From positions 1 through 64,000 of the IMG/VR virus record IMGVR_UViG_3300044522_000179: a stretch of DNA of 64,000 nucleotides; one strand, 5' to 3'. How positions within the stretch are numbered: position 1 is the first letter of the stretch; each line of letters starts with the position of its first letter. The position numbers and the translations under genes were made by a program. Shown in pieces: positions 34,101 to 63,893 of this stretch. A model generated the notes under the pieces. It saw only the letters and a list, made by a program, of their open reading frames with translations. It ran no database searches and had not been told where the DNA came from. This DNA is from a virus. Its lineage: Duplodnaviria > Caudoviricetes.

Positions 34101-37100
34101 GATGTTGCACCAGAAAACTTTGTAATAATGTTCATCATCTTTGGTGCAATGTCTTTATTATCTGTTGCCATTTGCAAAAGAGTTCTAAATACGGCTGGAG
34201 GAATATCTCCACTTGCCATCTTTGCTTGAATTAAAAACTCTTGTCCACTATCAATAAGACCATCTTTTCTTAGATTTTTTGATTGCTGATTTACAGTATC
34301 TATATATGCTAACTGGTTAGGATCATTTTTGTATTTTGCAGTTGTGGCTTTTTTCATTCCAGACATCATTGCTTCTTGAAGTCCACCAGCACTATTGTAT
34401 TGAGATACTATGTCTCCTTGCATTTTTGCTTGGGCTGCAGTTAGTTGATCTCTTTTTCCAACTTTGCCTTTTTCTTTATCTCCTAAATACTCTTTCTCTA
34501 GTTCTAACGCCTCATTAATTTTACCCTGCAGCCTTAACTCTTCAATTTTTTTCTGATAATACATATCAAGTGAATCTAGCATTTGTTTATTTTGTTCCAT
34601 TGCAATTTTAGCATCTACTGCGTAGGTTGCTCCAAGAACTGCTGCCTCTTTTGCATATTTCTTTGAGGCAAAGTATCCACCAATTGCTCCTACTGCTGTT
34701 CCAATTCCAGCACCTATAATTGCTCCTGCTAGAGTTCCTGCAGGTCCTAGTGCTGTTCCAATTCCAGCACCTGCTGCTGCTCCACCAAGAGCCGAAGCGC
34801 CTATACCTAGTCCTTGTGTTACTTTTTGTCCAGCAAGTTGTTGCAAAACACCAGCATTTTTTACATTATCAGCACTAGTTTTCATATTCGTTGCATTTGC
34901 ATTTACCATATTTATTCTAACATTCAATGGATCGTTAACAAGGTTTTCTCCATTTGGTCCAAGCAAACTTTCTAATTGAGCAATAACCTTTATACCAATA
35001 GACATATCTCCTGCTTGTCTAGCAGCATTCATAGCCAAACTTTTTGCCTGTGACATATCCATAGCGCCAGACATAATTGCTGCAGAAAGTTGGCCACCTA
35101 AATCTTTCACTGCAACATTTCCCTTACCTTCAGCGTTCTGTTTTGAAATTCTTGCAGTCAAAGCCTTTCCTTCTGCTGTTTGAGCATATGCTTCTCCATA
35201 TGTAGTCTTACCAGTTGCTGGGCCAAGCATTGCAAAAGAATTTTTTCTTCTTAGGTCCATTTGTTCTGAGGCTGTTGTCTTACCACCAAATTTTGCTATA
35301 GTCTGTAATGCAGATGTAGATCCTTTAAACTTTTCACCCTCTTCTAAAACCTGATCTGCTGCTTTATCAAATGACATTCTCAAGGCAGCAAATGATCCAA
35401 CTGTTGCAAGAAGTCCTACTGCTAAGGCTGAAGCAGGACTTTTTAACATTGGAATTATCATAGACAATCCCATAAGTGGCATCATTAATTTTTGTGAGAT
35501 TTCTCCAACTTTACCTGGTACCATAGAACCAATCATTGCTGCACCTGCTGCCATTCCGACACCGCCAGCAATTCCCATACCACCCTTACCTGCTACTTTT
35601 GCATTTTGTCTATTATTTTTAAGTCTTTGCAATTTAGTGGTTTCAAATTTACCATTTGCCATTGAAGGTCCCATTGGCGTTCCAGAAACTGAAGGTGCTG
35701 GTGTAAACTGTGCTGCTGCTCTTTCACTAATAATTCTTTTTTGATATGCTACAGAGTTTGCTAATTTAGTTCTTCTTTCCATTTGTCTACGCATAGACTT
35801 GGCATCTGCATCCATTGGACCCATGCCGTATAGTTTAGTTCTTGATGCTGCCATCTTTGCTTGTGTTTTTGCTTCTGCCCTTTGGCGCTTTTCCATTTGT
35901 CTACGTAAAGATTTAGCATCTGCATCTATTGATCCCGTTCCATACAAAGCAGTCCTTGATGATGCTGCTGCGGATTGAGATATTGTTTTTCCAATAGTGG
36001 CACCAGCAGCCTTGGCTTTTGCAACAGATCCTTTTACTCCCGCAAGAATTGCGTTTACAGTTGCATTCTTTGATCCTGGGGCATTTGCTTTTCCAACAAT
36101 TCTTCCCTTGGGGCCTTGACGAACCGATGAAGCAACACTCGCTGGAGCAAGTCTTGTATCCTTTATGCTGCCAGAGTCTGATTTTAACTTTCCGTTATTT
36201 GGCTTTGTTGGTATTGGCTTTAGGTTACCCTTTTTGTCTTCAAGTACTTCATCTGGCTTTACCAAAATTGAACGATGGAAGTTATAAACCTTTTTCCAGT
36301 CTGCGTTTAAGCCAGCCTGAAGTCTCTTATACATATCTTCATAAACTTTTTTGGCTGGATCTCCAGTCTTAAGTTTAAAGCCATCTATAGTTTTTCTTAA
36401 TTTTGGAAGAGTTCTATTGATTTCTTCTTTTATTTTTCTTTCATATTCATCTGCAGACTGAATATTTTGTGGAATATCAGCAGTGGCATTTCCAAACCAG
36501 AAAGGAGAGCCATTAGCATTTGGTCCTGTAACACCCTTAAAGTTATGCATAGCAATTGCTTCCATTGATGGAAGACCACTTGAATAGGCTCTTTTACCAG
36601 AGGCTGTATCAAATACACCTGCAGCGCCAACATCGGCTACAACATTTCCTCCAAGGTTGCCCTTCTTAAGGTCTTTGTCTCCACGAAGGGCTGCTGCTAC
36701 TGTTTGCTTAATATATTCTTTTTCAGTAAAAGTTTTTGGCATTGTGTTTGGATCAAATCTTGAGTCATACGGAGATTCCAAAACAATAATTTTTCTTTTT
36801 TTCTTAACATCTGGTTCATCAATATCTGTAGGATCAATCATTGTTTTGATTGTTTGTCTTGGTGCTAGTAAGCCTTGTGCTCTAGCAATCTCAGTTCCTC
36901 TTTTTTCTGCTATAGCGTCTAACTCACTCAGCATTGGTTTTACAAATACTTTTGACCCATCTGGCTTTGTAAATATTCCGCCGATGGTTGACATAAAATT
37001 ACTTCTACCAGAACTCTGTGTTTCTTGAACACCAAAGTTTGTAGGCTTCTTTGCTCCAAAGGCAGTTTGAGATGCCTCTATTGCAACTGCTCTTAGTTTT

Positions 37101-40100
37101 TCTTTGTGCTCCATTGCTTTTTCAAGATCAAGCAATTGTGGGGCTGATAGCGGTGCTGCAACCTTTGTTTTCTTTGCTGCCTTTGTGCCTTGAGAAATTA
37201 CAGGGGTTGTTCCTGCTCCAAGTCTGTTCATATTAACTACTGTTCCTTCTGGAACTTGAACTCCATGGTATGTGCCTGCTGGAAGAGTTATAGTTGATGA
37301 TCCAGTTACTACTCTTTTTTTACTATTAACTCTTTCATCAATGCTGTAGTCTAAGATTAAACCTTGTCTTTTTGCCTCATCAAGAATTTTTCTACTTTCA
37401 TCAGGTGTAGTTCCTAATCCCTTACCCATATTAAATCTATAGTCTGTTGCATACAATCCTTGAGATTTTACATAGCCTGGGTCGTTTGGACTTATTATTT
37501 TTGGAATTTCTTTCTTATATAAATTGTCAACTATTGAATCATTTATAAATGGGCTTTTAGATTCTTGAATTGACTTTAAGAATGCATTATCTAGCGCTTG
37601 TGCCTGTACTGCAGACATTCCAGATGGAGACCATTTGCCTGCTCCACCCTTAATCCATTCATCTATAAACTGTTGCTTAGGTACTCCACCAGTTAGGCTA
37701 GGCATTGCTTTATTCATCCACTCAGGGAAGTTGAACATAAGACTGTGCTTTGTTGTTGTTACTGGTGGCAAACCTTGTGATATTAGAACCTGTTCCATAG
37801 TTATAAGTTTTAACTTTTGATCGGGAGACATATTAGGATTGCTCTTAATAATGTCTGATATTAGTCTTGGCTCGCTGCGTCCGCCTACGTGTGTTTCATT
37901 AATTGCAACTGATTTAGCATCTGTTGTTGCTGCTACTTCAGGAGCAAATGCTAATCCTTGAACTCTTCCGCCTGCAACCATGTGTGCAATGGCTGGTCTA
38001 TTTGCTGGATCCTGTGCTGATTGTTGAGGGATTACTGCTTCGCCAGGAGTTAGGTCTGCGTTTACGCTATCTTTATTTCCAGTTCCTGGAACGCTTGTTG
38101 TTCCTTTACCATATTTTTTAGGTGTAGGCAAGCGCTTTCCAGCACTGGGACCCGTAAATCCTATTTGTGCTGCAATGGCTCTTCTGTATGCATTTGCCAA
38201 CATGTTAACTGCTGCTGTTTCAGAAGTAAAAGTTTGTCTTAATCTTTGATGAACCTGATCAAGTGATGCTGCAACTGCTGATGCTTCTAACTGTTCTTTA
38301 GTTAAATAGTTTGTCTGCTCGCCTAATATTTGACTTGATTGGCCTGTTCTGTTGTACATAGATTTTAATCCTGCAAACATTTTAATTATGTTAGCAACAG
38401 CGTTTGCAATCAAACCAAATCCCATTAAAAGAACTGGTCCAACACCAGCAAGGGCAACTGTAAGAATAGTTAAGAATTTTTTAGTACCGTCTCCTAAGTT
38501 ATTAAACTTGTCAAGAATTTTTCCAACAAACTCAACAATAGGGGTTAATGCTTTTAAGAATTGTTCTCCTACTGGAGCAATAGCCAATTTTAAATCTTCC
38601 ATTGATTTTTTAAATTTGTATGTTGTTGTATTCTGAATTTTATCTAATTCTCGTTGTGACAAGATTGCAAGTTCTTCTGTAGTTGCTTTTGTTAATGATA
38701 AGACTCTCTGTGCTTGTGTACCCTGGGTTGTTACGTTTTGGAACAGTGTGGAAAGTCTTGAAAACTGGAACTTACCAAATAGTTGTTCAATAGCACGAGC
38801 ACGGTTAAGTGGGTCAAGAGTATCAAGTGCTTGTGCAAAACCAACAACAGTTGCTTTAATGTCTCCTTGGTTGGCTTCAACAATTCCTTTAATATTTACG
38901 CCAAGTTCTCCAAGAAACTTGCTTGCCTTTGTTGATGGATTAATTAAAGATGCAAGACCAGACTTAAGTGCGTTGGCGCCTTCGGATGCATTGATTCCAC
39001 CTTCTTTCATTGCTGTAAGGAAAAATGCTAAGTCTTCAACGTTTCCACCAAGTTGCTTAACAACTGGTCCAGCCTTTGGAATTGCTATTGTTAAATCTTC
39101 AATAGATACTACAGTCTGGTTTTCAACTGCGTTAAGGAAATCAATTTTGTTTGCAAGATCTTCTGCTGCAACGCCAAAAGCGTTAGTTACAGAAATTGTT
39201 GTCTCTAATGCCTGCGTTTGTTCTACTCCGCCAAGAACTGCAAGCCTTGTTGCCTGTACAACTTGTGCAACTAATTCTGCACCCATCTTGCCCATTGCTG
39301 CAGCATCTGCAGCCATTTTCATTGTGTCTTCTATTGCAACGCCATACTTAGTATATTCTGTTGCAAGTTTTTGAATTTGCTTAACCATTGCATCAGTTTC
39401 TGCTTGTGTTGTAAACATTTCTCCATACACACGCTTAAACCTAATTGCCTGCTCTTCAAGTTTCATAAATGTTTTTGAAGCAACTGTACCAAGCATTGCA
39501 AGTGGAACAGTAAAACCAACCATTAACTGACGTCCTGCCCACTGAGTATTCTTACCAAAGTTTAGGAGATTGGTTGATCCTTGTCTTAATAATTGATTAA
39601 GTAGTTGTTGTCTCTGTGCAGCGATGGCTGTTTGTGTACCCAGATTTTTCATATCAAGCGTTAGAGGTCTTACCGCAATTGCTTGTAGTGCTCCATTGGC
39701 ACCTCTGCCCATCTTTACATACTGGGTCTGTATATCTTTTACACGCTCTCGTGCAACTTTATTTAATGTTTCAAATTCAGATCTAAAGAATCTTCCAAAA
39801 GTTTTTGTTGCTGCTCCAGTATATCTAAAATATTCTCTAGATGTTAACTTGTTTCTTTCTAAAGCATTAGTAAAAGACTCTGTACTTGATGTTACTGTTC
39901 GCATAGATGCTTGGAATTTTCCAGTAGCATTTATGCTGTTCATCAAGTTCTGTGCTTGATTTGCTGCTACCGCTGAGGCTGCGGTACCAGACTTTGCCAT
40001 TTGTGTATGGAAGGCTGATATTTGACGTTGTAGAAGTTTTAGACTTGCTAAAGCATCAGACGTATCAATATTTACATGAATATTGGATTCTACATCAGCC

Positions 40101-40102
40101 AT
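31151..40102 (-). CDS. Tape measure protein (2983 aa) with inserted non-helical region
   Basis: Size, position after the tail chaperones, TP901-like core (AMKEGGINASEGANALKS), Gly/Ala hydrophobic segments, coiled coils, terminal DTVPAMLTPGEFVM. Confidence 0.92.
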   Translation of the reverse strand: MADVESNIHVNIDTSDALASLKLLQRQISAFHTQMAKSGTAASAVAANQAQNLMNSINATGKFQASMRTVTSSTESFTNALERNKLTSREYFRYTGAATKTFGRFFRSEFETLNKVARERVKDIQTQYVKMGRGANGALQAIAVRPLTLDMKNLGTQTAIAAQRQQLLNQLLRQGSTNLLNFGKNTQWAGRQLMVGFTVPLAMLGTVASKTFMKLEEQAIRFKRVYGEMFTTQAETDAMVKQIQKLATEYTKYGVAIEDTMKMAADAAAMGKMGAELVAQVVQATRLAVLGGVEQTQALETTISVTNAFGVAAEDLANKIDFLNAVENQTVVSIEDLTIAIPKAGPVVKQLGGNVEDLAFFLTAMKEGGINASEGANALKSGLASLINPSTKASKFLGELGVNIKGIVEANQGDIKATVVGFAQALDTLDPLNRARAIEQLFGKFQFSRLSTLFQNVTTQGTQAQRVLSLTKATTEELAILSQRELDKIQNTTTYKFKKSMEDLKLAIAPVGEQFLKALTPIVEFVGKILDKFNNLGDGTKKFLTILTVALAGVGPVLLMGFGLIANAVANIIKMFAGLKSMYNRTGQSSQILGEQTNYLTKEQLEASAVAASLDQVHQRLRQTFTSETAAVNMLANAYRRAIAAQIGFTGPSAGKRLPTPKKYGKGTTSVPGTGNKDSVNADLTPGEAVIPQQSAQDPANRPAIAHMVAGGRVQGLAFAPEVAATTDAKSVAINETHVGGRSEPRLISDIIKSNPNMSPDQKLKLITMEQVLISQGLPPVTTTKHSLMFNFPEWMNKAMPSLTGGVPKQQFIDEWIKGGAGKWSPSGMSAVQAQALDNAFLKSIQESKSPFINDSIVDNLYKKEIPKIISPNDPGYVKSQGLYATDYRFNMGKGLGTTPDESRKILDEAKRQGLILDYSIDERVNSKKRVVTGSSTITLPAGTYHGVQVPEGTVVNMNRLGAGTTPVISQGTKAAKKTKVAAPLSAPQLLDLEKAMEHKEKLRAVAIEASQTAFGAKKPTNFGVQETQSSGRSNFMSTIGGIFTKPDGSKVFVKPMLSELDAIAEKRGTEIARAQGLLAPRQTIKTMIDPTDIDEPDVKKKRKIIVLESPYDSRFDPNTMPKTFTEKEYIKQTVAAALRGDKDLKKGNLGGNVVADVGAAGVFDTASGKRAYSSGLPSMEAIAMHNFKGVTGPNANGSPFWFGNATADIPQNIQSADEYERKIKEEINRTLPKLRKTIDGFKLKTGDPAKKVYEDMYKRLQAGLNADWKKVYNFHRSILVKPDEVLEDKKGNLKPIPTKPNNGKLKSDSGSIKDTRLAPASVASSVRQGPKGRIVGKANAPGSKNATVNAILAGVKGSVAKAKAAGATIGKTISQSAAASSRTALYGTGSIDADAKSLRRQMEKRQRAEAKTQAKMAASRTKLYGMGPMDADAKSMRRQMERRTKLANSVAYQKRIISERAAAQFTPAPSVSGTPMGPSMANGKFETTKLQRLKNNRQNAKVAGKGGMGIAGGVGMAAGAAMIGSMVPGKVGEISQKLMMPLMGLSMIIPMLKSPASALAVGLLATVGSFAALRMSFDKAADQVLEEGEKFKGSTSALQTIAKFGGKTTASEQMDLRRKNSFAMLGPATGKTTYGEAYAQTAEGKALTARISKQNAEGKGNVAVKDLGGQLSAAIMSGAMDMSQAKSLAMNAARQAGDMSIGIKVIAQLESLLGPNGENLVNDPLNVRINMVNANATNMKTSADNVKNAGVLQQLAGQKVTQGLGIGASALGGAAAGAGIGTALGPAGTLAGAIIGAGIGTAVGAIGGYFASKKYAKEAAVLGATYAVDAKIAMEQNKQMLDSLDMYYQKKIEELRLQGKINEALELEKEYLGDKEKGKVGKRDQLTAAQAKMQGDIVSQYNSAGGLQEAMMSGMKKATTAKYKNDPNQLAYIDTVNQQSKNLRKDGLIDSGQEFLIQAKMASGDIPPAVFRTLLQMATDNKDIAPKMMNIITKFSGATSESIGVAAQNILNAKGDINKTVQTKFITKVEAFEKDSDALDFTKNMIKLNNLNTVIPSDFMVSFYVDPKNKTAYEELNRVLDAIETQKPKTIDAVYNIMPQLKGTANFDEAYFKTLTDDQKLVYTTTIASIINIPEPQIEASEDYKAWLKEPAPHGGAGVSGSISYKIQKYREAQGYKAVTDNTSVGTKAPTGTTPNGDGNKVQSSPLDDLVKKLRDVRMNQIKVTEGWGASRKALDKLFGGNKTISVFSGIENDLRGLGTSQDFIELIVGMDPKVYEQKKNSLFKFDNKGNIVALKEDAKNIQEALNSITMGDWKSSMEADLKAIENQSTAFNKLANLGVPVAEAYQLVTDAGIAEAIANGVSNKNLETLINNYKRLTKEKEKYAAISGVKTDIAQFKKNTIQEGRLRSKYGAEDAFAISSDENLKLMESQLEAKEAQVKRLQTIGAPPAVIMAALGELSELVELFNTRLNQLKSTVEFMQGLFDKGFGNAMQAFDVQETALNIQFKIDTKSQNAIIKEAQNTIAAIQYEIDDKEAALKGIEDQEQKINDKYDERIKALDEVEKLNSSISNQQKGQLTLAEALTSGDISAAARAVQDMRAQAAADAVTKQKDAIEKSREYELSRVKTQGGKTRLDLEKEIKDLQDKIFKIEEDKLEPAQEFIRLRQIVLDKDIEGLTVLGLTKDAWEAIKNQVDLALIKSAAFVDSMKLALEIQAKLIAAYQAQPGNTSSNSAAQGPSPIISKPYVPDPEASPEANKEAEDAHKAAADAEAEANAALSEATAAALAAAAAIAELESQSAEIGKVAAGISALAIRKATNTTSLNKAVALAEGNLSPESIAINMSRALLSSKTMTKSLGGTAGALSTARYTGQAMKSMGLSAGGMVPKMFAAGGFAKGTDTVPAMLTPGEFVMSKYAVDSYGVDHMKKMNNGDLNSGAVYNNTYTLTVNAKTNANPNEIAQAVMSTIKQVDDRRIRGVSLNARN
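35771..35965 (-). repeat. Two-copy internal coding repeat (114-nt period) in the tape measure
   Basis: SRTALYGTGSIDADAKSLRRQMEKR / SRTKLYGMGPMDADAKSMRRQMERR. Confidence 0.85.
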
Positions 40103-53293: not shown

Positions 53294-53803
53294 TCATACT
53301 ATGCGTGTAAACCAGCGGGGTATTGTATACCTTGTCCCCTGAGAAATTGGCTTAACTCCATGAACAAAGTCTGGGGTGTCTGGAAAGCATATAAGATCTC
53401 CTGCGTCAGGCTTAATTGACACATCGTATTCTGGAAAATAGATTTCTCCACCTAAATAGTTATTGTTTAAATATATCAGTGTGGCTATGTCGTTTGGTTT
53501 TGTAGAGTCAAAATGTTCATGCATTCCAAACCCCTCATCAAATTTAGCAATATGTGTCTTAGAACTATCGTAATCTTCAAACGGGCCAGGATAGTTATCT
53601 CTTACAAACTTGAGTACAAGTTCTCCATAAGAATTTATCAGGCTTTCGATGTTTGCATCTTGGAATTCTGAGTGAAATGTAAACTCTTTTTCACCATTTC
53701 CAAACTCATTAAAAGACTTATCCATAGACTTGGCATATGAAAAAGCAAGAGTAGAAGCCTGTGGACTCATAAAATCTTTAACAACTTTTATCTGATCACT
53801 CAT
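53294..53803 (-). CDS. 2OG-Fe(II) oxygenase, prolyl 4-hydroxylase-like
   Basis: HEHFD, LIYLNNNYLGGEIYF, PDAGDLICFP, HGVKPISQGTRY: full HxD...H...R set. Confidence 0.88.
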   Translation of the reverse strand: MSDQIKVVKDFMSPQASTLAFSYAKSMDKSFNEFGNGEKEFTFHSEFQDANIESLINSYGELVLKFVRDNYPGPFEDYDSSKTHIAKFDEGFGMHEHFDSTKPNDIATLIYLNNNYLGGEIYFPEYDVSIKPDAGDLICFPDTPDFVHGVKPISQGTRYTIPRWFTRIV

Positions 53804-54401
53804 GAAAACCTTTTATCTCCCAATCGTCCCAAGATGTTTCTTCATAGGAAGATCTGTTTGGCATAAAGTGTTGGCCTTTCTTTCCCATCCAGGCCTCTGA
53901 TAAAAACAATAGTCCAGACTTGATTTCAGAAATGCCGTGTAAATTTTCTCGATCATCCTTAAAATAGATCAAGTCTCCAGGGTTTGGCTGAAAGGTTTTA
54001 TCTAATTTTGAAAAGATGAAGTCTCCACCCTCGTCTGCATTTTGCCAAACAATATAAGATACGTATGTACCTTCTGGCTTTGAATCTTCATTATGATGCT
54101 GAGGTTCTGAAGAACCAGGATTGTACCTTAGAATATAGTGCTTTGAAAACATTGGTGGGTGATATTCTGAATCATTTTCAGATTGAACAATATCGTAATA
54201 CCCTTTTGAATACTTAGAAAATATATCTAAGATGTGATCTGGCATTTCTCCACGAGTGTGGATATCAAATGGGGCACCGCCATTGTACAGATCGTTATGC
54301 AAAGGTACATGTTCTTCTCTTGTGTGGAATACGATTGTTCCAATATAGTCTTGAACAATTTTTAAGTCTTCTTTTGATATAAAGTTTTCTACTATTTTCA
54401 T
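53796..54401 (-). CDS. 2OG-Fe(II) oxygenase-like protein with divergent active site
   Basis: EGGDFIF, PNPGDLIYF, HGISEIKSG; HHNED in place of HxD and Leu where the 2OG-binding Arg is expected. Confidence 0.72.
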   Translation of the reverse strand: MKIVENFISKEDLKIVQDYIGTIVFHTREEHVPLHNDLYNGGAPFDIHTRGEMPDHILDIFSKYSKGYYDIVQSENDSEYHPPMFSKHYILRYNPGSSEPQHHNEDSKPEGTYVSYIVWQNADEGGDFIFSKLDKTFQPNPGDLIYFKDDRENLHGISEIKSGLLFLSEAWMGKKGQHFMPNRSSYEETSWDDWEIKGFHE

Positions 54402-56431
54402 TACTTTACCTTAATTTCACAATAGTCTGTTGTGCAATAGGCTTCGCCTTGCGCTTCAAGATTTTCTGCTCCATCATAAATAGCAGAAAAATCAATGTGC
54501 TTTAACTTGCCAACATATGACTCATATTGCTCTTCAGTAATACCTGTGTATGGTTGCTGTGGATAAACTGTGTTTCCCATTGGTAGGAATGAGACAGCCT
54601 TTAATTGTCCCTCGTACATATTGAGTGCTGGAACAATGTGCTTTGATTCTGTTTCTTTATCAAAAGATAATGTTACAGAAACACCATTGTCAGACCAATA
54701 CTTTTGAGCAGTTGCAGCAAGAGCAATCTTCTCAAACAATGTCACATCTTTTTCAGATCTTGGATGACCTGACTTAATTGGGAAGTAAACTACTGACGTG
54801 TTTGCTGATACTACGTCATCTTCAATTGTGTACCCTGCTGCTTTGAACAAATGAATCATTGGATCTGTGTTTCCAAAACGAACGGCACGAAGGAAGAACT
54901 CTCCTCCAGGACCCCAGTGAACTCCAGGAGTTGCACCAGAAAGAATTGAAACTGATCCTGATGGCTTAACTGTTGTTACACGAATTGATTCACGAACACA
55001 CAGCCATTCTGAATACTGGTGATCATAATGACGAATCTTGTTATAACCTTCATCCATCCATTCACGAACAACTGGCAAACCCTTTTGATCTGCAAATGAT
55101 GCAATACCAGTAAGCGATGTACCAATACGACGGTTGCGTTGCATGATACCGTTTGTTTGTGGCCAGTGTGTTGGAACAAGTGTTACAGTCTTTCCATAAA
55201 GATATGCAAACTTCAGGGTACGCAGGAAGTCCTCCTTAGATTCATGACGATTTAAGTGTACTTCTACAAGTGTACATAATTCGTATGACTCCAATGGCTG
55301 CTCCGCACAGGGGTTAAAGCCCATCACACGATAGTCTTTTCCATCTGGCGCATCCTTTAGCCTGCCATAATTACGAGCAACATCAAGCCAGATAAAACCT
55401 GGTTCTCCGTTTTCCGTAATTAAATCTACATAGTCTTCGTACTTTGTTCCTACTTCTGCTGAAATAGAATTATTAGACATCCAAGCCCATCCTGGATTTT
55501 CTGGATCAAACGAGTTACGCTCTGGGAATAGTTCTGAATTCTTTAGATTCATAAATGTTTCATCCCCCGCATTTCCCAAAGCAAGTGTTGCTGAGCGTCG
55601 AACATTGCCTGATACCACGCAGGTGCCAATGAGGTTTACAAGGTCTACGATAGCACGAGAGTCTAGTGTTTCACCCGCTCTGGAGCCGATTACACGGTCT
55701 ATATGGTCATGCAACTTGATAAGAGGTGCAGGTCCTGATGCAACGCCTCCAAAACCCTTGATGGGGGCTCCTAGGGGCCTAATCGAGTCGTAGTTAAACT
55801 TCTGAATACTCTGGTTTGCTCTTAGGTATGAGTTGATAAGAAGTCGTACTGACTCTACCCATCCTTCACGAGTGTCTGGGATTTCGAACACCTGTTCTGG
55901 TTCTGTTGGGGCATAGATTGAGAAATGCTTATCCTGTCCTACTGTATCAAACCCTACACCAATTCCAAGCATAAGTGCATCCATGACCCAAGCAAACAGG
56001 GCTCCTGGATCATTCTTATCAAGATCTTTTGTAGATACCATTGCACAATTTTGTAGTGCTGCTGAATTCTTTTTCTCCATGGTCATAGGAGTTCCAAATG
56101 CCCACATGCCTCGTCCTGGTGGTGTCCACTTTAATTCAAACATTCTTTGGAATGCTTCCTGTGCAGATTTCTGAGCCTTATAGTCATTCCATGGTAGACG
56201 GTTCTCTTTAGCATGATTCTTCTGAACTGAATACATACCCTCGATTACACGACGACAAACCTCGTGCCATCTTTCTTTAGTTCCATCTTCCTTCATACGA
56301 GAATACGTACGAATAAAAGTAATTTCTCCAAGTGAATTTTCTGCTGCATCCTTAAACCCAAATGGGCTTTCTTGGCTCTTGTACTTTTCTACGAAGTCCT
56401 CTGGAAGTTTAAAACTAAAAAAATCTGACAT
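54401..56431 (-). CDS. nrdJ: Class II (adenosylcobalamin-dependent) ribonucleotide reductase, monomeric RTPR type
   Basis: RTYSR, PPGRG, LQNC, GNVRRSA, NPCAEQ...ELCTLVE, TTVKPSGSVS, C-terminal CTTDYC; no ATP cone or beta subunit. Confidence 0.92.
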   Translation of the reverse strand: MSDFFSFKLPEDFVEKYKSQESPFGFKDAAENSLGEITFIRTYSRMKEDGTKERWHEVCRRVIEGMYSVQKNHAKENRLPWNDYKAQKSAQEAFQRMFELKWTPPGRGMWAFGTPMTMEKKNSAALQNCAMVSTKDLDKNDPGALFAWVMDALMLGIGVGFDTVGQDKHFSIYAPTEPEQVFEIPDTREGWVESVRLLINSYLRANQSIQKFNYDSIRPLGAPIKGFGGVASGPAPLIKLHDHIDRVIGSRAGETLDSRAIVDLVNLIGTCVVSGNVRRSATLALGNAGDETFMNLKNSELFPERNSFDPENPGWAWMSNNSISAEVGTKYEDYVDLITENGEPGFIWLDVARNYGRLKDAPDGKDYRVMGFNPCAEQPLESYELCTLVEVHLNRHESKEDFLRTLKFAYLYGKTVTLVPTHWPQTNGIMQRNRRIGTSLTGIASFADQKGLPVVREWMDEGYNKIRHYDHQYSEWLCVRESIRVTTVKPSGSVSILSGATPGVHWGPGGEFFLRAVRFGNTDPMIHLFKAAGYTIEDDVVSANTSVVYFPIKSGHPRSEKDVTLFEKIALAATAQKYWSDNGVSVTLSFDKETESKHIVPALNMYEGQLKAVSFLPMGNTVYPQQPYTGITEEQYESYVGKLKHIDFSAIYDGAENLEAQGEAYCTTDYCEIKVK

Positions 56432-56465
56432 GTGTATCGTCCTTTCAAAAACGGATTAAGTCCTA

Positions 56466-56474
56466 AGTATAGCA
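56466..56474 (-). promoter_or_regulatory. Extended -10 TGCTATACT upstream of nrdJ, next to an inverted repeat (AGAGTTTT-N9-AAAACTCT)
   Basis: Seen directly in the intergenic sequence. Confidence 0.65.
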
Positions 56475-56536
56475 GAGTTTTATGAAAAGCAAAACTCTCC
56501 CTAAAGCAATGGTTTATAGTTATTTAAAAGTAATTA

Positions 56537-57136
56537 CTAAATACGTTTTTCTGGATGCTCAGATAGTAATTTTAATATTTCAAGATCTATATCATAAAAA
56601 GAAAGATGTTGTGTTTTTTTAAAAAATTCTAAACGCAAGTCTTCATTGCGATTTTCCTCAAATACTACATTTCTATATTTTTCTGTGCTTAAAGGGTGGC
56701 CTGAAGACTTAAAGGCTTCTGGGTTTAATTCTGGTTTTGGACAATTGTTGTCTAAAGAATAAAAAATTTTATAAATTGTACTATCTATATCTTTAATTAA
56801 ATCATTAAAAACAATATAATAAGAGTTGTCACTTAATTTTATGTTTTTTAAAAAGTTTAAATAGTTATTTTTAAAAATTTTAAAAACATCATCTATGCCA
56901 TCAAACTTTTTATCCTCATAGTCAAAAATAAGAATAGATAAAAAAACATCTTTTGGGTTTCTTATTATAGTTAAACATTTATCGTACTTATTTTTTAATA
57001 AAAGGGATGGATTGTGCTGTCCAAACTCACAAAAATCGTAATCAAGTCTATTCTCATTAATGTATAAATTAATCATATATTGTAAAAAGTTATTTCCACT
57101 TCTTGGTGGACTAGATACAACTGTTTTATTGTTCAT
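56537..57136 (-). CDS. Sulfotransferase-like (P-loop) accessory protein
   Basis: SPPRSGNNFL (5'-PSB-like), IIRNPKDVFLS (3'-PB-like), IVFNDL; very AT-rich. Confidence 0.7.
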   Translation of the reverse strand: MNNKTVVSSPPRSGNNFLQYMINLYINENRLDYDFCEFGQHNPSLLLKNKYDKCLTIIRNPKDVFLSILIFDYEDKKFDGIDDVFKIFKNNYLNFLKNIKLSDNSYYIVFNDLIKDIDSTIYKIFYSLDNNCPKPELNPEAFKSSGHPLSTEKYRNVVFEENRNEDLRLEFFKKTQHLSFYDIDLEILKLLSEHPEKRI

Positions 57137-57264
57137 TTAAAAGTCATCACTGCATGCTTGCCTGTTCCCGTGCATCTTTCACATATTGTTTTTGATGCTG
57201 AAGTAACTGGACACTGCTGTGTTATAATTTTGTGGCCAAAGATTAAACACTTAATTTTGTTCAA
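57133..57264 (-). CDS. 43-aa Cys/His protein (DUF1660-like) MNKIKCLIFGHKIITQQCPVTSASKTICERCTGTGKHAVMTFK
   Basis: Hand translation; TTGA and ATGA overlaps with both neighbours; C-x3-GH...C-x-RC pattern. Confidence 0.7.
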   Translation of the reverse strand: MNKIKCLIFGHKIITQQCPVTSASKTICERCTGTGKHAVMTFK

Positions 57265-57893
57265 AGATTTATCCAAATTGGATCTGTTGCGCCTGAACTT
57301 GCTGGAGCAATATCATAAGCAATAGTAATTCTTGGCTTATCTTCATACCAGTCATCTCTTCCATGTGGGTGTCCTGTTTCTGAAATAATTGCTCTATTGT
57401 TTTTGTTATGATTTTCAAATGGAGTATTGTTATTAATACTATAATAAGTTATTGATGGCTCAGCATTTACACAATAGTAACCATGAAATACTGGTGCACC
57501 TTCTCCACCCATATGATCATGCATAAATACATCATTTTTTAATGGGTTTACTCCAGAACCACCTTCTGTTTTTGGATCTAAGTTGTACCATCCATGGACT
57601 TTATATTGCATTTTCTCAAAGTCAATACCGTAGTATTCTGCAGCCTCTTGTATGGCCTCTTTGAGGGCTTCTTTGAGGGCTTTAATTCCTGGGTGATCAA
57701 AGTCAAAAACATTATAAAACATTCCCAACTGTGTAGTTGGACCATTATAAATACTGTATTTAGACAAAGTTTCTTCTGGAATATTACCAATTTTTCCACT
57801 TAAAATTTCTAACTGCTTAGACTTTAAGTATGTGTAAAGGCTGTCTAAATCATTTTCTAAAAATCTTTCAAAAAACTTATGTTCTTTTTTCAT
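57261..57893 (-). CDS. Putative 2OG-Fe(II) oxygenase (HxH type)
   Basis: GWYN...MHDH...FHGYYCV...GHPHG...RITIAYDI; start moved to MKKEHK. Confidence 0.7.
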   Translation of the reverse strand: MKKEHKFFERFLENDLDSLYTYLKSKQLEILSGKIGNIPEETLSKYSIYNGPTTQLGMFYNVFDFDHPGIKALKEALKEAIQEAAEYYGIDFEKMQYKVHGWYNLDPKTEGGSGVNPLKNDVFMHDHMGGEGAPVFHGYYCVNAEPSITYYSINNNTPFENHNKNNRAIISETGHPHGRDDWYEDKPRITIAYDIAPASSGATDPIWINL

Positions 57894-58549
57894 ACAAGAG
57901 GAATCCAATGCTGCTCTTGATTCATTGCAAATTTTTGAAGATCTCTTAATGGAATTATGTCATAGGCAACTGTAATTCTTGGACCTTCCCAATCCCAATC
58001 AGCCATTGCATGTGGATGACCCATTTCAGAAAGAACAGCACGGTTGTTTATATTGTTATTTTCTATTTCTTTGTCAAATACTAGATAATGTGTTTTTGAT
58101 GGTTCTGCTGCTACTGAATAGTACCCGTGAAAATTTGGAGCACCAAATGGACCATGATCGTGCCAGTCTAATTTTCCTTTTCCAGTATGAGTAATATTAA
58201 ACCAGCCCTGAACCATAAATTTTTCTTTATTAAAATCAAGTCCATAATAATCACAAGCCTCAACTACCATAGACCTTACTGCTCCGTAAAGATTATGAAT
58301 TCCTGTTGAGTGAAACTGAAAAACATTATATTGTCTCCATTTCATGGTAGACACACTATTAGACTGCTTCCATATTTCATTTTCTCCAACAGCAGAGACA
58401 CCAATTAGTTTAGCCTGTTCAATTTTTGCATATCTATCTTGTAATTCAGCAGAAAGAACTGGCAAATTATTGTCTAAAAATCTTTCAAAAAACTTATGTG
58501 GTTGACTTGATGTGCTTACACTTTTTGGTTTATTTGGATCAAATTGCAT
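57890..58549 (-). CDS. Putative 2OG-Fe(II) oxygenase (HxH type), paralog of 57261..57893
   Basis: HKFFERFL, YNVF, GWFN, WHDH, FHGYYSV, GHPHA, RITVAYDI. Confidence 0.7.
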   Translation of the reverse strand: MQFDPNKPKSVSTSSQPHKFFERFLDNNLPVLSAELQDRYAKIEQAKLIGVSAVGENEIWKQSNSVSTMKWRQYNVFQFHSTGIHNLYGAVRSMVVEACDYYGLDFNKEKFMVQGWFNITHTGKGKLDWHDHGPFGAPNFHGYYSVAAEPSKTHYLVFDKEIENNNINNRAVLSEMGHPHAMADWDWEGPRITVAYDIIPLRDLQKFAMNQEQHWIPLV

Positions 58550-58573
58550 GCTTTCTCCATTCGTAGTTTATTT

Positions 58574-58582
58574 AGTATACCA
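58574..58582 (-). promoter_or_regulatory. Extended -10 TGGTATACT for the oxygenase operon
   Basis: Immediately downstream of the terminator hairpin. Confidence 0.7.
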
Positions 58583-58583
58583 T

Positions 58584-58613
58584 AAAAAGATAAAGCCCTC
58601 AATTTATGAGGGC
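58584..58613 (-). terminator. Rho-independent terminator after the FN3 gene
   Basis: Minus strand GCCCTCA-taaat-TGAGGGC-TTTATCTTTTT. Confidence 0.75.
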
Positions 58614-58647
58614 AAAATCTTAATATAGACCTTTAACTAGATTATTT

Positions 58648-59763
58648 TTAGCCACGGCTATAAGGTGAGAATGGTGAGAAACCAAATGGTGAGAAACCAA
58701 ATGGTGAGAAACCAAACGGTGAGAAACCAAACGGTGAGAAACCAAACGGAGAAAATCCAAATACTCCAAATGGGGAGAATCCAAATACTCCGAACGGAGA
58801 GAAACCAAATACTGCAAATGGAGAGAATCCAAATACTGCAAATGGTGTAAACGAGAATGCTGATGTAATTGATCCAGATGCTGCAGAAGTTGAAGAACTT
58901 CCATTTGCATTGTCAGCACGGACTGTGTATGTCTGGGCTGTTCCAGATTCTTGTGAAACAACTACTGATGTAGAGCCTGTGTTTCCAGTTTTTCCATCAG
59001 AACATGTCCAATAGTAATTTGTAATTGCAGATCCACCATTTGCTGGTGCTGACCATGAAACTGTATCATTTGCAGTTGCTGCTGCTCCCTGCGCTGCTGC
59101 GCCACCTACTGCTGCTGTAGTTGCTGTTGGAGCAGATGGAGTGTTTGGCACAGTTGTTGCAGTAATTGTATTAGATGCTGAAGAGTATGTTGAGTCTCCA
59201 TTTGCATTTGTTGCTTTAACTGTAAAAGTGTAGGCAGTATTTGATGAAAGACCTGCAACTGATATTGGACTTGTTGCACCAGTACCAGTATGTGACCCAG
59301 ATGACAACACTGTATAACCAGTAATTGCAGATCCACCTGTTGTACCAGCAGTAAATGTTACTGAGGCTAAACCATTGTTAAACGCTCTTGTTGATGGACT
59401 ATTTGTTGCAGTTCCAATTGTTGGTGCTTGAGGTACTGTTGTAACTGTTACAGAGTTAGATGCAGCAGATGCTGGACCAGTTCCTTCAGCGTTAGTTCCT
59501 GTTACTGTAAAAGTTGCTGTTGCTGCTGAAGCAATTCCAGTTACAATAATTGGAGATGATGCCCCAGTTGCTGTTTGTCCTGTGCTTGCTGTTACAGTAA
59601 AAGATGTCGCAGCATTAGGCCCTGTAGGGGTAAATGTTACTGATACAGCGCCATTGTCATAAGGACGGGCTGTTCCAACATTTGTTGCTGTACCTATCGT
59701 TGGTGCATATGGGGTAAGGAAGTCATTTGCTCCCTGACTCATTCTACCTGCTTGCTTTGACAT
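58648..59763 (-). CDS. Fibronectin type III repeat protein (3 domains) with a C-terminal (FGFSP)n tail
   Basis: P-x-APT...GGSAITGYTV...YTFTVKATNANG motifs three times; no signal peptide; last gene of the fibre cluster. Confidence 0.85.
   Translation of the reverse strand: MSKQAGRMSQGANDFLTPYAPTIGTATNVGTARPYDNGAVSVTFTPTGPNAATSFTVTASTGQTATGASSPIIVTGIASAATATFTVTGTNAEGTGPASAASNSVTVTTVPQAPTIGTATNSPSTRAFNNGLASVTFTAGTTGGSAITGYTVLSSGSHTGTGATSPISVAGLSSNTAYTFTVKATNANGDSTYSSASNTITATTVPNTPSAPTATTAAVGGAAAQGAAATANDTVSWSAPANGGSAITNYYWTCSDGKTGNTGSTSVVVSQESGTAQTYTVRADNANGSSSTSAASGSITSAFSFTPFAVFGFSPFAVFGFSPFGVFGFSPFGVFGFSPFGFSPFGFSPFGFSPFGFSPFGFSPFSPYSRG
58663..58860 (-). repeat. Coding tandem repeat: 4 x 24-bp (F[A/G]VFGFSP) plus 5 x 15-bp (FGFSP) units
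   Basis: Plus strand shows ggtgagaaaccaaa(t/c) units and longer degenerate units. Confidence 0.95.
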
Positions 59764-59793: not shown

Positions 59794-61581
59794 TTATGCT
59801 GACAAATCTCCGAAGACTAACCATCCTGCTGCAGTCTTCATTGCTGTAACTACTGAGTTTGTAGTTCTAAACTTAAGTCCTGGTGTTCCTACTACGCTGT
59901 TGGTTGCAGCAAATGATGCTCCAGTTCCTGATGCTTGGTAGAAATCAATTGACTGACCAGTAGAGTATCCTGATGCAGGAAGAGTAATGACTACTGTTCC
60001 AGCAACTGGTATAAACTTATCTTGTTCTCCTGCTGCAAGTGTTCCTGTTGCTGCAAAAGATGATCCAAATGCTGTTATAGAAGGAACTCCGACCTTTGTT
60101 TGTGTACCGTCTGAAAATACGATACCAGCAGATGGAGTTACTGTTGTTGCTTCAAATGCTGCAACCTTAAGATCATCAAGTGATCCCTCTGTAAAGTCTA
60201 CTGTTGTTGAAGGCTCTGTAGTGACTCCCTTGAACAACTTCCACTTAGCATCAGATACATCTCTAACAAGACCTGCATGCTTATTTGCACCATCATTGTA
60301 ACCAACGACAAGACCTAAGTCTACGGTGTTTGCTGCATTTTGGTGAGCAAGTTGAAGCATGTTATCTTCGATTGTAATAGATGTTGCTGATGCATTAAAT
60401 GTTGTACCGTTTACAGTTAAGTTTCCATTAACAACAACATCGTTTGTTGATGTTACTGTTCCTGTAAATGTTGGTGCAGAAAGATTAGCCTTAAGATCAA
60501 GCGCTGTTTGTGTAGCAGTTGATACTGGCTTGTTTGCATCTGATGTATTATCAACAGATCCAAGCCCAACCATAGTTGATGTGATACCAGAAACAGTACC
60601 TGTAAATGTTGGTGAAGCAAGTGGTGACTTTAGATCAAGGGCAGTCTGAGTTGCTGTAGAAACTGGCTTGTTAGCATCTGAAGTATTGTCAACATTTGCA
60701 AGGCCTACTGAAGACTTTGTTAGTGCTGCTACTGCAGTTGTTACTGCTCCGTCAGCATATGTCTTAGTTGCTAATGCTGCAGTGTCTTCGATACCGTGAA
60801 CATTTGTTGTATCAGCATTGTGATCTGAAATCTTTGTGTCTGCTGCAGTTCCTGCTGCAGTAATTGCTTCTGACTTTGCTGTTGTAGCAACGCCTTCTGC
60901 ATATGTCTTTGTTGATAAGGCTGCTGCATCTGCAATACCGTGCACATTTAATGTAACGGCAGCGTGGTCAGTAATATCCTGCATTTCTGCAAGAAGTGCA
61001 GTATTTGCAATTCCATGAACTGATGTTGTAACAGAAGCATGGTTTGTTATGTCTGTAAGTCTAGCAAGTAGTGCTGTATCTGTAATTCCATGCACATCTG
61101 TTGTGTCTTCCCTGTGACTTTCTATATTTGCGGTAGTTGCTAGAAGTGAAGTATCTGCAATTCCGTGAATGCTTGTTGAGTCGTTTGAGTGTGTTGTAAC
61201 TGATGAATCTGCATATGACTGTGTTGCAAGTAGTGCTGTATTTGCAATACCGTGAATATTTGTTTGATCTGTTTCATGAGTAGAAAGGGCTGTTCCTGTA
61301 GCAGTAATTGCTGTGTTCATTGTTGTTAAAAATGCTGGGTCATCTCCAATTGAATATGCCAACTCATTAAGAGTATTTAGAAGATCTGGGGCACCGTCAA
61401 CAATTGCTGCTAGTTCGGCTGCATTAGCAAAATACTGTAGGGCTGACCATGTTGATGATCCGTTACCCATCTTAAACTTACTTGTGTCGGTCTCAAAACC
61501 GATTTCTCCTGCTGCGAGGATTGGGTTAGCAGCCGTCCATTGTGCTGCAGTACCTCTGCGCTGTTGCATTCTTGTTGCCAT
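59794..61581 (-). CDS. Tail fibre/appendage protein with Mtd-like N-terminal domain and HGI repeats
   Basis: MATRMQQRRGTAAQW...GEIGFETDT...KMGNG; six T-x-(V/I)HGI-x-(D/N) repeats; two NTSDANKPVSTA repeats. Confidence 0.8.
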   Translation of the reverse strand: MATRMQQRRGTAAQWTAANPILAAGEIGFETDTSKFKMGNGSSTWSALQYFANAAELAAIVDGAPDLLNTLNELAYSIGDDPAFLTTMNTAITATGTALSTHETDQTNIHGIANTALLATQSYADSSVTTHSNDSTSIHGIADTSLLATTANIESHREDTTDVHGITDTALLARLTDITNHASVTTSVHGIANTALLAEMQDITDHAAVTLNVHGIADAAALSTKTYAEGVATTAKSEAITAAGTAADTKISDHNADTTNVHGIEDTAALATKTYADGAVTTAVAALTKSSVGLANVDNTSDANKPVSTATQTALDLKSPLASPTFTGTVSGITSTMVGLGSVDNTSDANKPVSTATQTALDLKANLSAPTFTGTVTSTNDVVVNGNLTVNGTTFNASATSITIEDNMLQLAHQNAANTVDLGLVVGYNDGANKHAGLVRDVSDAKWKLFKGVTTEPSTTVDFTEGSLDDLKVAAFEATTVTPSAGIVFSDGTQTKVGVPSITAFGSSFAATGTLAAGEQDKFIPVAGTVVITLPASGYSTGQSIDFYQASGTGASFAATNSVVGTPGLKFRTTNSVVTAMKTAAGWLVFGDLSA

Positions 61582-62129: not shown

Positions 62130-63893
62130 TTACGCAAGTAGTGTTCCGACAACAGTCACTGTTGAAGTGTTGTTGGCAGTTGTTACTAGAAGTTGTACAT
62201 TTGCTCCTGAGATTGATGCTGAAACTGAACCAAGAGATGATCCTGTTGAGACCATTCCGTATTCAGTAATTGCAATGTTGTCTGAAGAATCAAGTGTTAA
62301 AAGTACCTTTGAAACGTCTGTATTAGATCCATTGGCAATCTTAACAAGGTATTCTGCTGAACGGTATGAAGCCTTTGCGAAAGCATGTGCTGTCTGAACT
62401 CCTGCTGTTGCTGCTTCAAGAGTTGCTGCAACCTGCTTAGCAACTGAGTTAATTGCAACTGATGTAAATGAACGATCTGTTCCATCTACCGCAGTACGAG
62501 CACGAGCATCTGTGAAGTAAAGATTTGTACCTTCTGCAAGGTTAGTGGTTGTAGAATCTGCTACACCGTTTTCTGCGGTAATAACAAGGCCTGAACCTGA
62601 ACCTGTAATTGTAATATTTGTAAGTGTTGCACCAGTCAAAAGATCTGCTGCTGAAGACTTAGCACGAACATCTGTAAAGTACTTGTTTGTTGTAGCCTCT
62701 GCTACATCGTCTGTATCAAGTGCGTCTGCGTAAGCCTCTGCTGCAGTCTGTGCTGCTGCAATTGCTGTAGCCTGTGCAGTTGAAACTGGCTTGTTAGCAT
62801 CAGAAGTATTATCTACGTTGGCAAGACCAACTGAAGACTTTGTTAATGCTGATACTGCGTTTGAAATTGCAGTACCTGCTGCGGTTCCTGCTGCGGTGAC
62901 TGCATCTAATTCTGCTGTATCAACATACTGCTTTGTTGCTGCTCCAAGGTTTTCTGATGGATCTGCTGAAAGGACAAGAAGTCCAGTCATTGTGTCGCCA
63001 GCCTTTGATACCTTAGTTCCTACTGATGTAGTAAGAGTTGTAGCAAAGTTAGCATCATCTGCAATTGCAAATGCCAACTCATTAAGAGTATTAAGAAGTT
63101 CTGGTGCTCCATCTACAAGTGATGCAATTGCTGCATCTGTATATGCTGTTGTAGCAACCTGAGTATTATTTGTTCCTGCAGTTGCTGTAGGAGCAGTAGG
63201 TGTACCAGTTAATGCTGGAGATGCAAGAGGAGCCTTTAGGTCAAGCGCTGTTTGTGTAGCGGTTGAAACTGGCTTGTTTGCATCGGAAGTGTTATCTACG
63301 TTTCCAAGGCCAACCATTGTTGATGTAATACCAGATACTGTACCTGTAAATGTAGGTGATGCAGTAGGGGCCTTAGTATCAATCTGTGTTTGAATTGCAG
63401 ATGTTACTCCGTCTACATAGTTAAGTTCTGTTGTTGAAAGCGTTGCACCATCAAGAATATTAATCTCTGCATAATCTGCAGTGACACCATCAAGGATGTT
63501 TAACTCTGCTGTAGTTGCTGTTACGCCATCAAGAAGATTAATTTCTGCTGCTGTAGCATTTACTCCTGTTAGATCTGTTGGGGCAATGTTAATATTAGCA
63601 CTACCGTCAAATGATTGACCAGCAATAGTTCTTGCTGTAGCAAGTGTTGTTGCTGTACTTGCATTACCAGTTAATGCTGCTGTAACTGTTCCTGCAGCAA
63701 AATTACCTGATGCATCACGCTTTACAACCTTGTTTGCTTCGTTAGCAGATGTTGCTGTACCACCAATAAGACCAACTACATAATCTTGGTCTGCTTGTTT
63801 CTTTGTAAGAATGTCATATCCGCCAACTGTTGCTGATGAACCTTCAACGACTAAACCACTCTTAATTTTAAAATCTTTATTTACTGTTGCCAT
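62130..63893 (-). CDS. Tail fibre/appendage protein
   Basis: T(T/A)AE(L/I)N(I/L)LDG repeats, NTSDANKPVSTA, GAPELLNTLNELA, AATKQYVD, LAEGTNLYFTDARA. Confidence 0.8.
   Translation of the reverse strand: MATVNKDFKIKSGLVVEGSSATVGGYDILTKKQADQDYVVGLIGGTATSANEANKVVKRDASGNFAAGTVTAALTGNASTATTLATARTIAGQSFDGSANINIAPTDLTGVNATAAEINLLDGVTATTAELNILDGVTADYAEINILDGATLSTTELNYVDGVTSAIQTQIDTKAPTASPTFTGTVSGITSTMVGLGNVDNTSDANKPVSTATQTALDLKAPLASPALTGTPTAPTATAGTNNTQVATTAYTDAAIASLVDGAPELLNTLNELAFAIADDANFATTLTTSVGTKVSKAGDTMTGLLVLSADPSENLGAATKQYVDTAELDAVTAAGTAAGTAISNAVSALTKSSVGLANVDNTSDANKPVSTAQATAIAAAQTAAEAYADALDTDDVAEATTNKYFTDVRAKSSAADLLTGATLTNITITGSGSGLVITAENGVADSTTTNLAEGTNLYFTDARARTAVDGTDRSFTSVAINSVAKQVAATLEAATAGVQTAHAFAKASYRSAEYLVKIANGSNTDVSKVLLTLDSSDNIAITEYGMVSTGSSLGSVSASISGANVQLLVTTANNTSTVTVVGTLLA

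Follow-up and report, generated by a model that had tools for sequence, protein, structure and literature searches.

In the stretch of viral DNA analysed here, a window of 64,000 nucleotides comprising positions 1 to 64,000 of IMG/VR virus record IMGVR_UViG_3300044522_000179 (Duplodnaviria; Caudoviricetes), the 371-aa product of a gene at 58648-59763 ends in a Phe-rich repeat tail, and the class to which this tail belongs is genetically coupled to a particular set of neighbouring genes. The gene, referred to below as the FN3 gene and delimited by its open reading frame (ORF), a Pfam fn3 match and internal repeats, encodes a short conserved N-terminus, three FN3-like modules and the C-terminal tail (58651-58860), the repeat of which is of the FG-x-Pro class. 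The coupled set, located on the minus strand as are all genes in the region, includes OX219 (57890-58549), a double-stranded beta-helix protein with the 2-oxoglutarate (2OG) oxygenase fold in a structure model; its paralogue OX215 (57261-57908; 43% identity to OX219); and a 47-aa Cys/His protein, mini47 (57133-57276). Beyond nrdJ (54401-56431), a class II ribonucleotide reductase gene identified by Pfam and PHROG, it continues with p4h169 (53294-53803), a 2OG-Fe(II) oxygenase of the prolyl 4-hydroxylase (P4H) type, and p4h201 (53796-54401), its divergent P4H-like paralogue. To the reading that the tail belongs to a virion adhesin and is hydroxylated, perhaps also sulfated, by the enzymes of this island, we give an even chance.

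Loci were retrieved from IMG/VR by the FN3 protein (344 relatives among 450 pattern matches), by an OX profile, by X240 (a DUF6065-like protein of 237-250 aa that takes the place of OX in some relatives) and by the tail alone (175 of 225 pattern matches encode relatives). The ORFs between the FN3 gene and a 1237-aa ORF at the other end of the island were clustered, a family of 137-153-aa ORFs being kept apart from OX, and co-variation was counted over 94 unique loci, all within one synteny group. The sequence-only reading of this DNA, made earlier without database searches, had proposed to test whether the repeat co-varies with the oxygenase set, and co-variation was indeed observed: both OX and P4H genes were present in 56 of the 61 loci with an FG-x-Pro tail, the others having OX only (three loci), P4H only (L033) or neither (L122), whereas OX or P4H was found in 0/27 of the (GAF)n loci, all of which (27/27) carried X240. 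YSFTP tails were likewise accompanied by X240 (5/5) and by no OX or P4H (0/5), and the single locus with an FYN tail had OX only. Among the loci retrieved with the OX profile, an aromatic-repeat gene lies just upstream in 78 of 80, and the other two are cut too short.

The same association was seen when loci were compared along gene trees. On a DNA tree of nrdJ (70 rows) the class label changes 12 times, and over 12 independent pairs P4H went with class in 12.0, OX with class in 11.0 and X240 in the opposite direction in 10.3, contrasts which use neighbouring genes as the backbone and would overcount if few haplotypes move as blocks with nrdJ homogenised. For the 1237-aa ORF, a tree of 87 rows labelled with an older two-class scheme has seven changes; in its six pairs P4H went with class in 4.9 and against it in 0, with no difference in 1.1. 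The window is the sole FG-x-Pro row in a well-supported clade of 20 (GAF)n rows of this second tree.

That position makes the window a natural swap. Its nearest backbone relatives (L116, L112, L024 and L019) are all of the (GAF)n class, and the window is colinear with them at 77-94% DNA identity, barring two separate blocks. The first, 56532-58855, contains the repeat, OX219, OX215, mini47 and a sulfotransferase-like gene, in place of which the relatives hold (GAF)n, a Hint domain and X240; homology to the nearest (GAF)n relatives ends at 58856, where the repeat starts. The second, 53297-54404, is the P4H pair, where the relatives have 14 bp. Between both blocks lies nrdJ, at 92-94% identity to relatives of either repeat class, and it is a conserved backbone gene inside the island, standing outside the tailoring set. 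No DNA nearby is better conserved than nrdJ, which should make it an easy place for crossovers; since (GAF)n was nonetheless combined with P4H in 0/27 loci, the pattern argues that the P4H block is held together with the OX/repeat block by selection.

The tail consists, in order, of one AFSFTP, two FAVFGFSP, two FGVFGFSP and five FGFSP units, followed by FSP, YSRG and the stop codon. The composition of the last 70 residues is F25 S12 G12 P11 V4 A3 T1 Y1 R1, and Tandem Repeats Finder reports a period of 15 with 6.2 copies at 58670-58762 and a period of 24 with 4.3 copies at 58742-58845. In the four 8-residue units six of the eight codon columns are variable, five of them by synonymous changes only and one as A/G; the five FGFSP units differ solely in a Pro codon (CCG/CCA). 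Two overlapping ORFs, 58620-58961 (-) and 58665-58850 (+), with LVSHR and MVRNQ repeats respectively, are by-products of the 15-nt period and not genes. Upstream of the tail, PF00041 fn3 matches residues 133-198 (E 7e-12, 45.8 bits, cut-off 25), placing the protein in the FN3 family, and three segments of ~95 aa are mutually similar (a-b 54%, E 4e-25; b-c 49%, E 7e-9; a-c 32%, E 9e-4). The sequence-only reading had described 70 residues with 25 Phe and 11 Pro in this very unit order, units that differ mainly at synonymous positions, and three FN3 domains; all three descriptions agree with these results, the third by a Pfam match for one domain and internal similarity for the others. The tail does not qualify as a collagen-like triple helix, its Gly spacings being 5 or 3+5 with no uninterrupted Gly-X-Y.

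In the IMG/VR relatives the FN3 proteins all bear an aromatic repeat at the same place, followed by a stop or by a domain of 150-200 residues. The repeat classes found at this position are FG-x-Pro, (GAF)n, YSFTP, FYN and FFSPP. The (GAF)n class (L009-L027, L081-L116 and others, e.g. L015:10859-11092) is formally Gly-X-Y, with Pfam Collagen below threshold (22.3 bits against 27.2), and in every case a Ser1-type Hint domain and X240 come after its tail. YSFTP/YAFTP pentapeptides occur in L117, L120, L121, L123, L124 and L126/L127, (FYN)n in L186 and L199, and (FFSPP)n in L068 and L079.

The window's own 76.9-kb contig has a single repeat protein. In many relatives a gene 5-9 kb upstream encodes a second protein with a like tail, often with a Hint domain of its own; in these second proteins the tail stands behind PASTA (Pfam E 1e-11 to 2e-5) or behind TP-linker or Cys-rich segments. 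Within one genome both repeat proteins carry the same motif variants, and in some lineages the variable residue of F-x-VFGFSP changes from one unit to the next in the same order in both paralogues. The tail is a portable C-terminal module, found behind FN3, PASTA or Cys-rich domains. A query with the tail alone brought in 68 further loci but no lineage from outside this synteny group: 60 have an FN3-domain match and eight are short contigs with a PASTA-type paralogue. Small PASTA proteins with a Phe-rich tail, with or without Hint, were seen at L034:2507-3223, L063:1000-1332, L080:2074-3381 and L338:1918-2805, and Cys-rich inserts with no family match lie between long (Thr-Pro)n linkers, in or before the aromatic repeats, in L009, L080:2074-3381, L005:351-1907 and L002:107-1363. 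PASTA domains point to a Gram-positive cell wall, and the small PASTA-tail proteins suggest binding to peptidoglycan and a Gram-positive host. The affinity of nrdJ to actinophages agrees with this: its best phage match is a predicted actinophage (62%), in itself a weak hint of the host.

The sequence-only reading had also raised the question whether other alleles continue into a further domain. They do in 64 of the 94 unique complete loci, where 150-200 aa follow the repeat; the other 30, among them the window, end 1-24 residues past it. The first part of the post-repeat domain weakly matched three Pfam families of the Hint clan in three relatives, and among PDB entries a 26-sequence profile of the domain matched inteins and a bacterial intein-like domain (2.7e-5 to 4.9e-5). 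Its structure model (predicted local distance difference test, pLDDT, 90.8) was closest in fold to Tetrahymena BIL2, 6tmm (E 9.6e-8, template modelling score, TM, 0.68), then to inteins and Hedgehog. Position 1 is Cys, in domains ending in His-Asn plus 1-4 residues, or Ser, in domains ending in [H/Y/F]-Asp, and stands five residues ahead of a conserved Thr. By profile and model, the post-repeat domain of the relatives is thus a Hint (bacterial intein-like, BIL) domain of the autoprocessing type. In the simplest reading it would cut itself off at Cys1/Ser1 and leave the repeat as the mature C-terminus, and the window allele, in which the stop falls three residues past the repeat region as delimited in the locus survey, would encode such a product directly. 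According to PMC8616854, BIL2 passes its upstream C-terminus to a lysine.

The shortness of the window protein could also mean that its tail is a functionless, decaying remnant of a Hint-bearing gene truncated by deletion, seeing that most unique relatives (64/94) have the Hint domain that the window is missing. We find this very improbable. The 30 Hint-less loci are intact ORFs with varied short endings, no frameshifts or stops inside the repeat and no relaxed selection were seen in the Hint-less alleles examined, and the window units differ almost solely synonymously; after self-cleavage, moreover, Hint-bearing alleles would give a like C-terminus.

The arrangement of the protein bears equally on the suggestion of the sequence-only reading that the gene encodes a multi-core precursor of the type of ribosomally synthesized and post-translationally modified peptides (RiPPs), which would be cut into FGFSP or F-x-VFGFSP peptides, tailored and released. 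Near-identical tandem units conserved as peptide, with tailoring-type enzymes nearby, are what such a precursor would have. No leader/core organisation is present, however: the repeat is a C-terminal module behind 300 folded FN3 residues, or behind PASTA in the paralogues, and the gene sits among fibre and head genes. No protease, cyclase or exporter/transporter was found among the island gene families in any listed layout, and Hint, the sole processing element found, is predicted to cut once, behind the repeat. The fixed unit order common to two paralogues, furthermore, suggests defined unit positions in one polypeptide. The RiPP suggestion is therefore not supported, and in our estimate has scarcely any chance of being correct. 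As to the broader claim that the tail is a modified substrate, a virion-displayed tail, the modification of which we infer, is the best reading, and the cutting into penta- or octapeptides finds no support.

OX219 and OX215 gave no Pfam, NCBIfam or PDB-sequence match, and thus belong to no curated profile family. An AlphaFold2 model of OX219, built on 40 family members (pLDDT 87.3), has the double-stranded beta-helix fold, with 178 PDB matches in Foldseek at E<=0.001; at the top, beside two uncharacterised proteins, are PHD1 (5v1b, 1.5e-6), P. putida P4H (4iw3) and PHD2. Across 40 sequences of the OX family no variation is seen at H130, H132, H180 and R191 and hardly any at D131 and H178, and OX215 retains the invariant columns of this alignment. 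Where the sequence-only reading spoke of two 2OG-Fe(II) oxygenases, the fold is upheld by this prolyl-hydroxylase-like model; a curated profile match is missing and the motif reads H-D-H. The only family lead comes from language-model neighbours of OX219, which carry PF13759; there are 711 OX homologues, and all 120 listed are unnamed or hypothetical. The third gene, mini47, matches DUF1660 (23.2 bits, cut-off 21.4, E 1e-4), and its family numbers 78 island ORFs; in most FG-x-Pro loci a member comes after the OX genes.

Beyond nrdJ, p4h169 is a member of 2OG-FeII_Oxy_3 (46.1 bits, cut-off 27) with an intact H-x-D...H...R motif: H97, D99 and H148 show almost no variation, and a conserved RYT motif retains its Arg. 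Its PDB sequence matches are human prolyl 3-hydroxylase 1 (P3H1; 9e-6) and B. anthracis P4H (1e-4). At 23.6 bits p4h201 falls below the same cut-off of 27, and one of its relatives has Gln and Cys at the two His positions; p4h201 looks catalytically degenerate and may be a non-catalytic partner. Of the prolyl-4-hydroxylase-like pair that had been noticed here, one member is accordingly intact and the other lacks the canonical ligands.

The sulfotransferase-like gene of the window (56537-57136, 199 aa) belongs to Sulfotransfer_1 (27.6 bits, cut-off 22). Its family (12 sequences) has an invariant P-x-R-S-G-N-N near the N-terminus and a later R-x-P-K-D, which we take to be the loops that bind 3'-phosphoadenosine-5'-phosphosulfate. 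It has 11 relatives in a protein collection and no homologue in the 80 first-fetched loci; nor did IMG/VR yield one when scanned with the protein by itself and with a profile of 12 sequences. Among the loci fetched the gene is an accessory specific to the window. A gene of another family, Sulfotransfer_2, is present in 12 unique loci, all with Hint, and the islands of relatives include, besides, a gene for an Asp/Asn beta-hydroxylase (E 5e-13) and one weakly matching GNAT. The Asp/Asn beta-hydroxylase was seen in L040 (3562-4125), L153, L171 and L172, and three of these four loci have tails with Asn-bearing F-N-VFGFSP units, a sample too small for a claim.

Placed together, these elements suggest the following scheme. 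The FN3 gene lies in a structural region, because fibre-like genes flank it on one side and portal, head protease and capsid-like genes on the other, and its product would be an adhesin-type structural protein of this uncultured phage, probably displayed on the virion. The two OX proteins and the P4H pair would hydroxylate the tail, most likely at Pro after Ser, Thr, Ala, Val or Gly, and the extra sulfotransferase in the window phage may sulfate the resulting or an existing hydroxyl. Modification would tune a hydrophobic, self-associating or surface-binding tail. We infer the Hint cleavage and the virion location no less than the hydroxylation.

Several observations weigh against this scheme. 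Tail hydroxylation and sulfation are proposed from sequences and models. Among the enzymes, OX219 has H-D-H instead of the usual H-x-D, and p4h201 has Asn in place of the first His of the iron site and Leu in place of the Arg; among the Hint domains, a Cys1 subclass ending in HN and a short LKYY-type tail is without the block-B His. The association itself has exceptions: one FG-x-Pro tail (L033) is without OX, and L174, L197 and L204 have OX without P4H, while six (GAF)n loci have a distant P4H-like gene 9-10.5 kb upstream. YSFTP tails are ~20% Pro and yet 5/5 are without both enzyme sets, as is L122; Pro alone is therefore not the determinant of the enzymes. The window nrdJ is about as close to that of the FG-x-Pro locus L001 (93.7%) as to that of the (GAF)n locus L116 (94.0%), the tree contrasts may be overcounted as noted above, and the repeat-OX association could be plain linkage through adjacency. 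Pattern scans, finally, place a terminator-like hairpin with a T-run (58613-58595, minus strand) between the FN3 gene and OX219, overlapped by a promoter-like site (58602-58574, minus strand). The sequence-only reading had entered this separation, and the want of a peptidase or cyclase in the island, as caveats of its own.

One possible explanation of many of these points is that the island is a generic, hypervariable one of the auxiliary metabolic gene (AMG) type, with enzymes acting on host proteins, nucleotides or small molecules, that the class correlation arose via few recombining haplotypes which include the FN3 3' end, and that the tail is an unmodified structural or anchoring element. 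Island content is highly variable (at least 20 layouts), repeat and OX genes are physically adjacent, a nucleotide-metabolism gene, nrdJ, sits mid-island, and both the terminator-like site and the Pro-rich YSFTP tails without enzymes speak for it. In the cyanophage Synechococcus phage ACG-2014b, moreover, distant OX-like and P4H-like genes lie clustered, and no aromatic repeat occurs in the 8 kb around them. This explanation is harder to reconcile with the P4H block, which lies beyond nrdJ, the most conserved and so most recombination-prone gene, and still tracks class in 12/12 contrasts, with (GAF)n + P4H at 0/27. Also against it are the left breakpoint in the window, which falls exactly at the repeat start, the enzyme folds nearest to protein prolyl hydroxylases, and the recruitment of two unrelated sulfotransferase families and an Asp/Asn hydroxylase to the same island. 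We regard the generic island, the main rival, as possible, if on the doubtful side.

In ACG-2014b (L290, NC_027130.1, 18.0-21.1 kb) successive small genes are labelled 'DNA endonuclease', 'DNA endonuclease V' or hypothetical. One of them, gp024, is a distant match of OX219 (31%), and the window p4h169 matches PHROG families bearing 'DNA endonuclease' names; on account of these two matches the endonuclease labels are likely misnomers.

A bolder version of the tailoring scheme would have a dedicated system of 'sticky tails', in which small FN3 or PASTA modules that bind the cell wall bear aromatic repeats. These repeats would be freed, possibly ligated through a Hint (thio)ester to a nucleophile of the virion or cell wall in the manner of BUBL or Hedgehog, and would afterwards receive hydroxyl and sulfate groups from enzymes matched to their class, OX/P4H in the case of FG-x-Pro and X240 in that of (GAF)n and YSFTP. 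The chemistry would recall that of mussel adhesive or plant hydroxyproline-rich proteins and would serve adsorption to Gram-positive hosts. We advance it tentatively and think it rather unlikely in this complete form.

The surroundings of the island are as follows. The first gene in transcription order is a fibre-like gene at 62130-63893, followed by a 151-aa ORF and a second fibre-like gene at 59794-61581 (595 aa, with an Mtd_N N-terminus), all on the minus strand. The two fibre-like proteins have a near-identical segment of ~45 residues in common, and the 595-aa protein contains ~6 copies of a ~14-residue motif around H-G-I-A-D/N-T-A-L-L-A. On the 3' side of p4h169 the 1237-aa ORF, which has no family match, is followed by portal, head protease and a capsid-like gene. 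Farther away, the tail region has a 2983-aa ORF at 31151-40102 (-) and then a 1430-aa minor-tail-like ORF (26237-30529), and tandem repeats of 78 nt and 42 nt lie at 4188-4456, within a 694-aa ORF (3599-5683). Neither megablast of the region nor tblastn of the FN3 protein found a match in 50,697 GenBank phage records. A scan of genome contigs for hosts gave 145 relatives among at least 600 pattern matches, mainly generic FN3 proteins; the aromatic repeat was present in just 4 of 80 retained loci, all of them small contigs of metagenome-assembled genomes.

The aromatic-repeat tails, mostly capped by Hint, occur on hundreds of IMG/VR contigs and add a family to those known to phage structural biology. 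Aquatic phages encode many 2OG-Fe(II) oxygenases, the substrates of which are not known, and the tail offers a concrete candidate encoded next door and backed by swap genomes. If tails are hydroxylated, sulfated or ligated, virion adhesins would be subject to enzymatic tailoring, which would matter for how abundant, uncultured phages of fresh water recognise their hosts, and the family would supply protein modules capable of self-cleavage and self-association. In the literature searched, supplementary files aside, we found no description of this repeat, of its Hint cap or of hydroxylation of phage virion proteins, and nothing relevant, PMC12014285 included, on hydroxyproline or prolyl hydroxylase in virions, on BIL or Hint in phage fibres or on Phe-rich repeats.

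Multi-core RiPPs, such as the cyanobactins and the fungal MSDIN/cycloamanides, share with the tail a tandem conservation at the peptide level beside tailoring-type enzymes; the phage tail differs from them in that it has no leader, inter-unit recognition sequences, macrocyclase, protease or exporter and belongs to a domain protein of 371 aa encoded in a structural cluster. To the FG repeats of nucleoporins and to mussel foot proteins the likeness, low-complexity, uncharged, Phe-Gly-rich repeats, is one of composition only. Compared with them the phage tail is without hydrophilic spacers and is built of 5- or 8-residue units with Pro, and there is no homology. The repeat residues of mussel foot proteins are enzymatically hydroxylated, an analogue of the chemistry proposed here. 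Peptidase S74, the self-cleaving, C-terminal intramolecular chaperone of phage tail fibres and spikes, offers a precedent for a C-terminal domain autocatalytically removed from a phage structural protein. It has another fold, with a Ser-Lys dyad as against the N-S/N-O acyl shift of Hint, and no Pfam match to it was found in the relatives scanned.

The closest parallels are found for the two activities that we propose. Like the prolyl hydroxylases that modify Pro-rich repeats (collagen P4H/P3H, Bacillus anthracis P4H), the island combines a sequence match (p4h169) and a fold (OX219) of this kind with a repetitive, Pro-containing protein encoded alongside. Here, unlike with collagen-type P4H, the proposed substrate is not X-Pro-Gly, there are four paralogous members of the fold, one apparently degenerate, and the YSFTP class does without them. 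There are other repetitive targets: the P4H of chlorovirus PBCV-1 acts on (PAPK)n, and plant hydroxyproline-rich glycoproteins are P4H targets. The Hint domain of the relatives resembles Tetrahymena BUBL BIL2 (6tmm), Clostridium thermocellum BIL (2lwy) and the Hedgehog domain HhC, which transfers its upstream segment to cholesterol, in fold, in its Cys/Ser1 and in its position directly after the segment to be released, and one class ends in His-Asn. It differs from them in that many phage copies have a terminal Asp in place of Asn, while another class is without the block-B His, and cleavage or ligation is a prediction here; the window allele has no Hint, and what stands upstream is a Phe-rich repeat on a phage structural protein instead of a ubiquitin-like or signalling domain.

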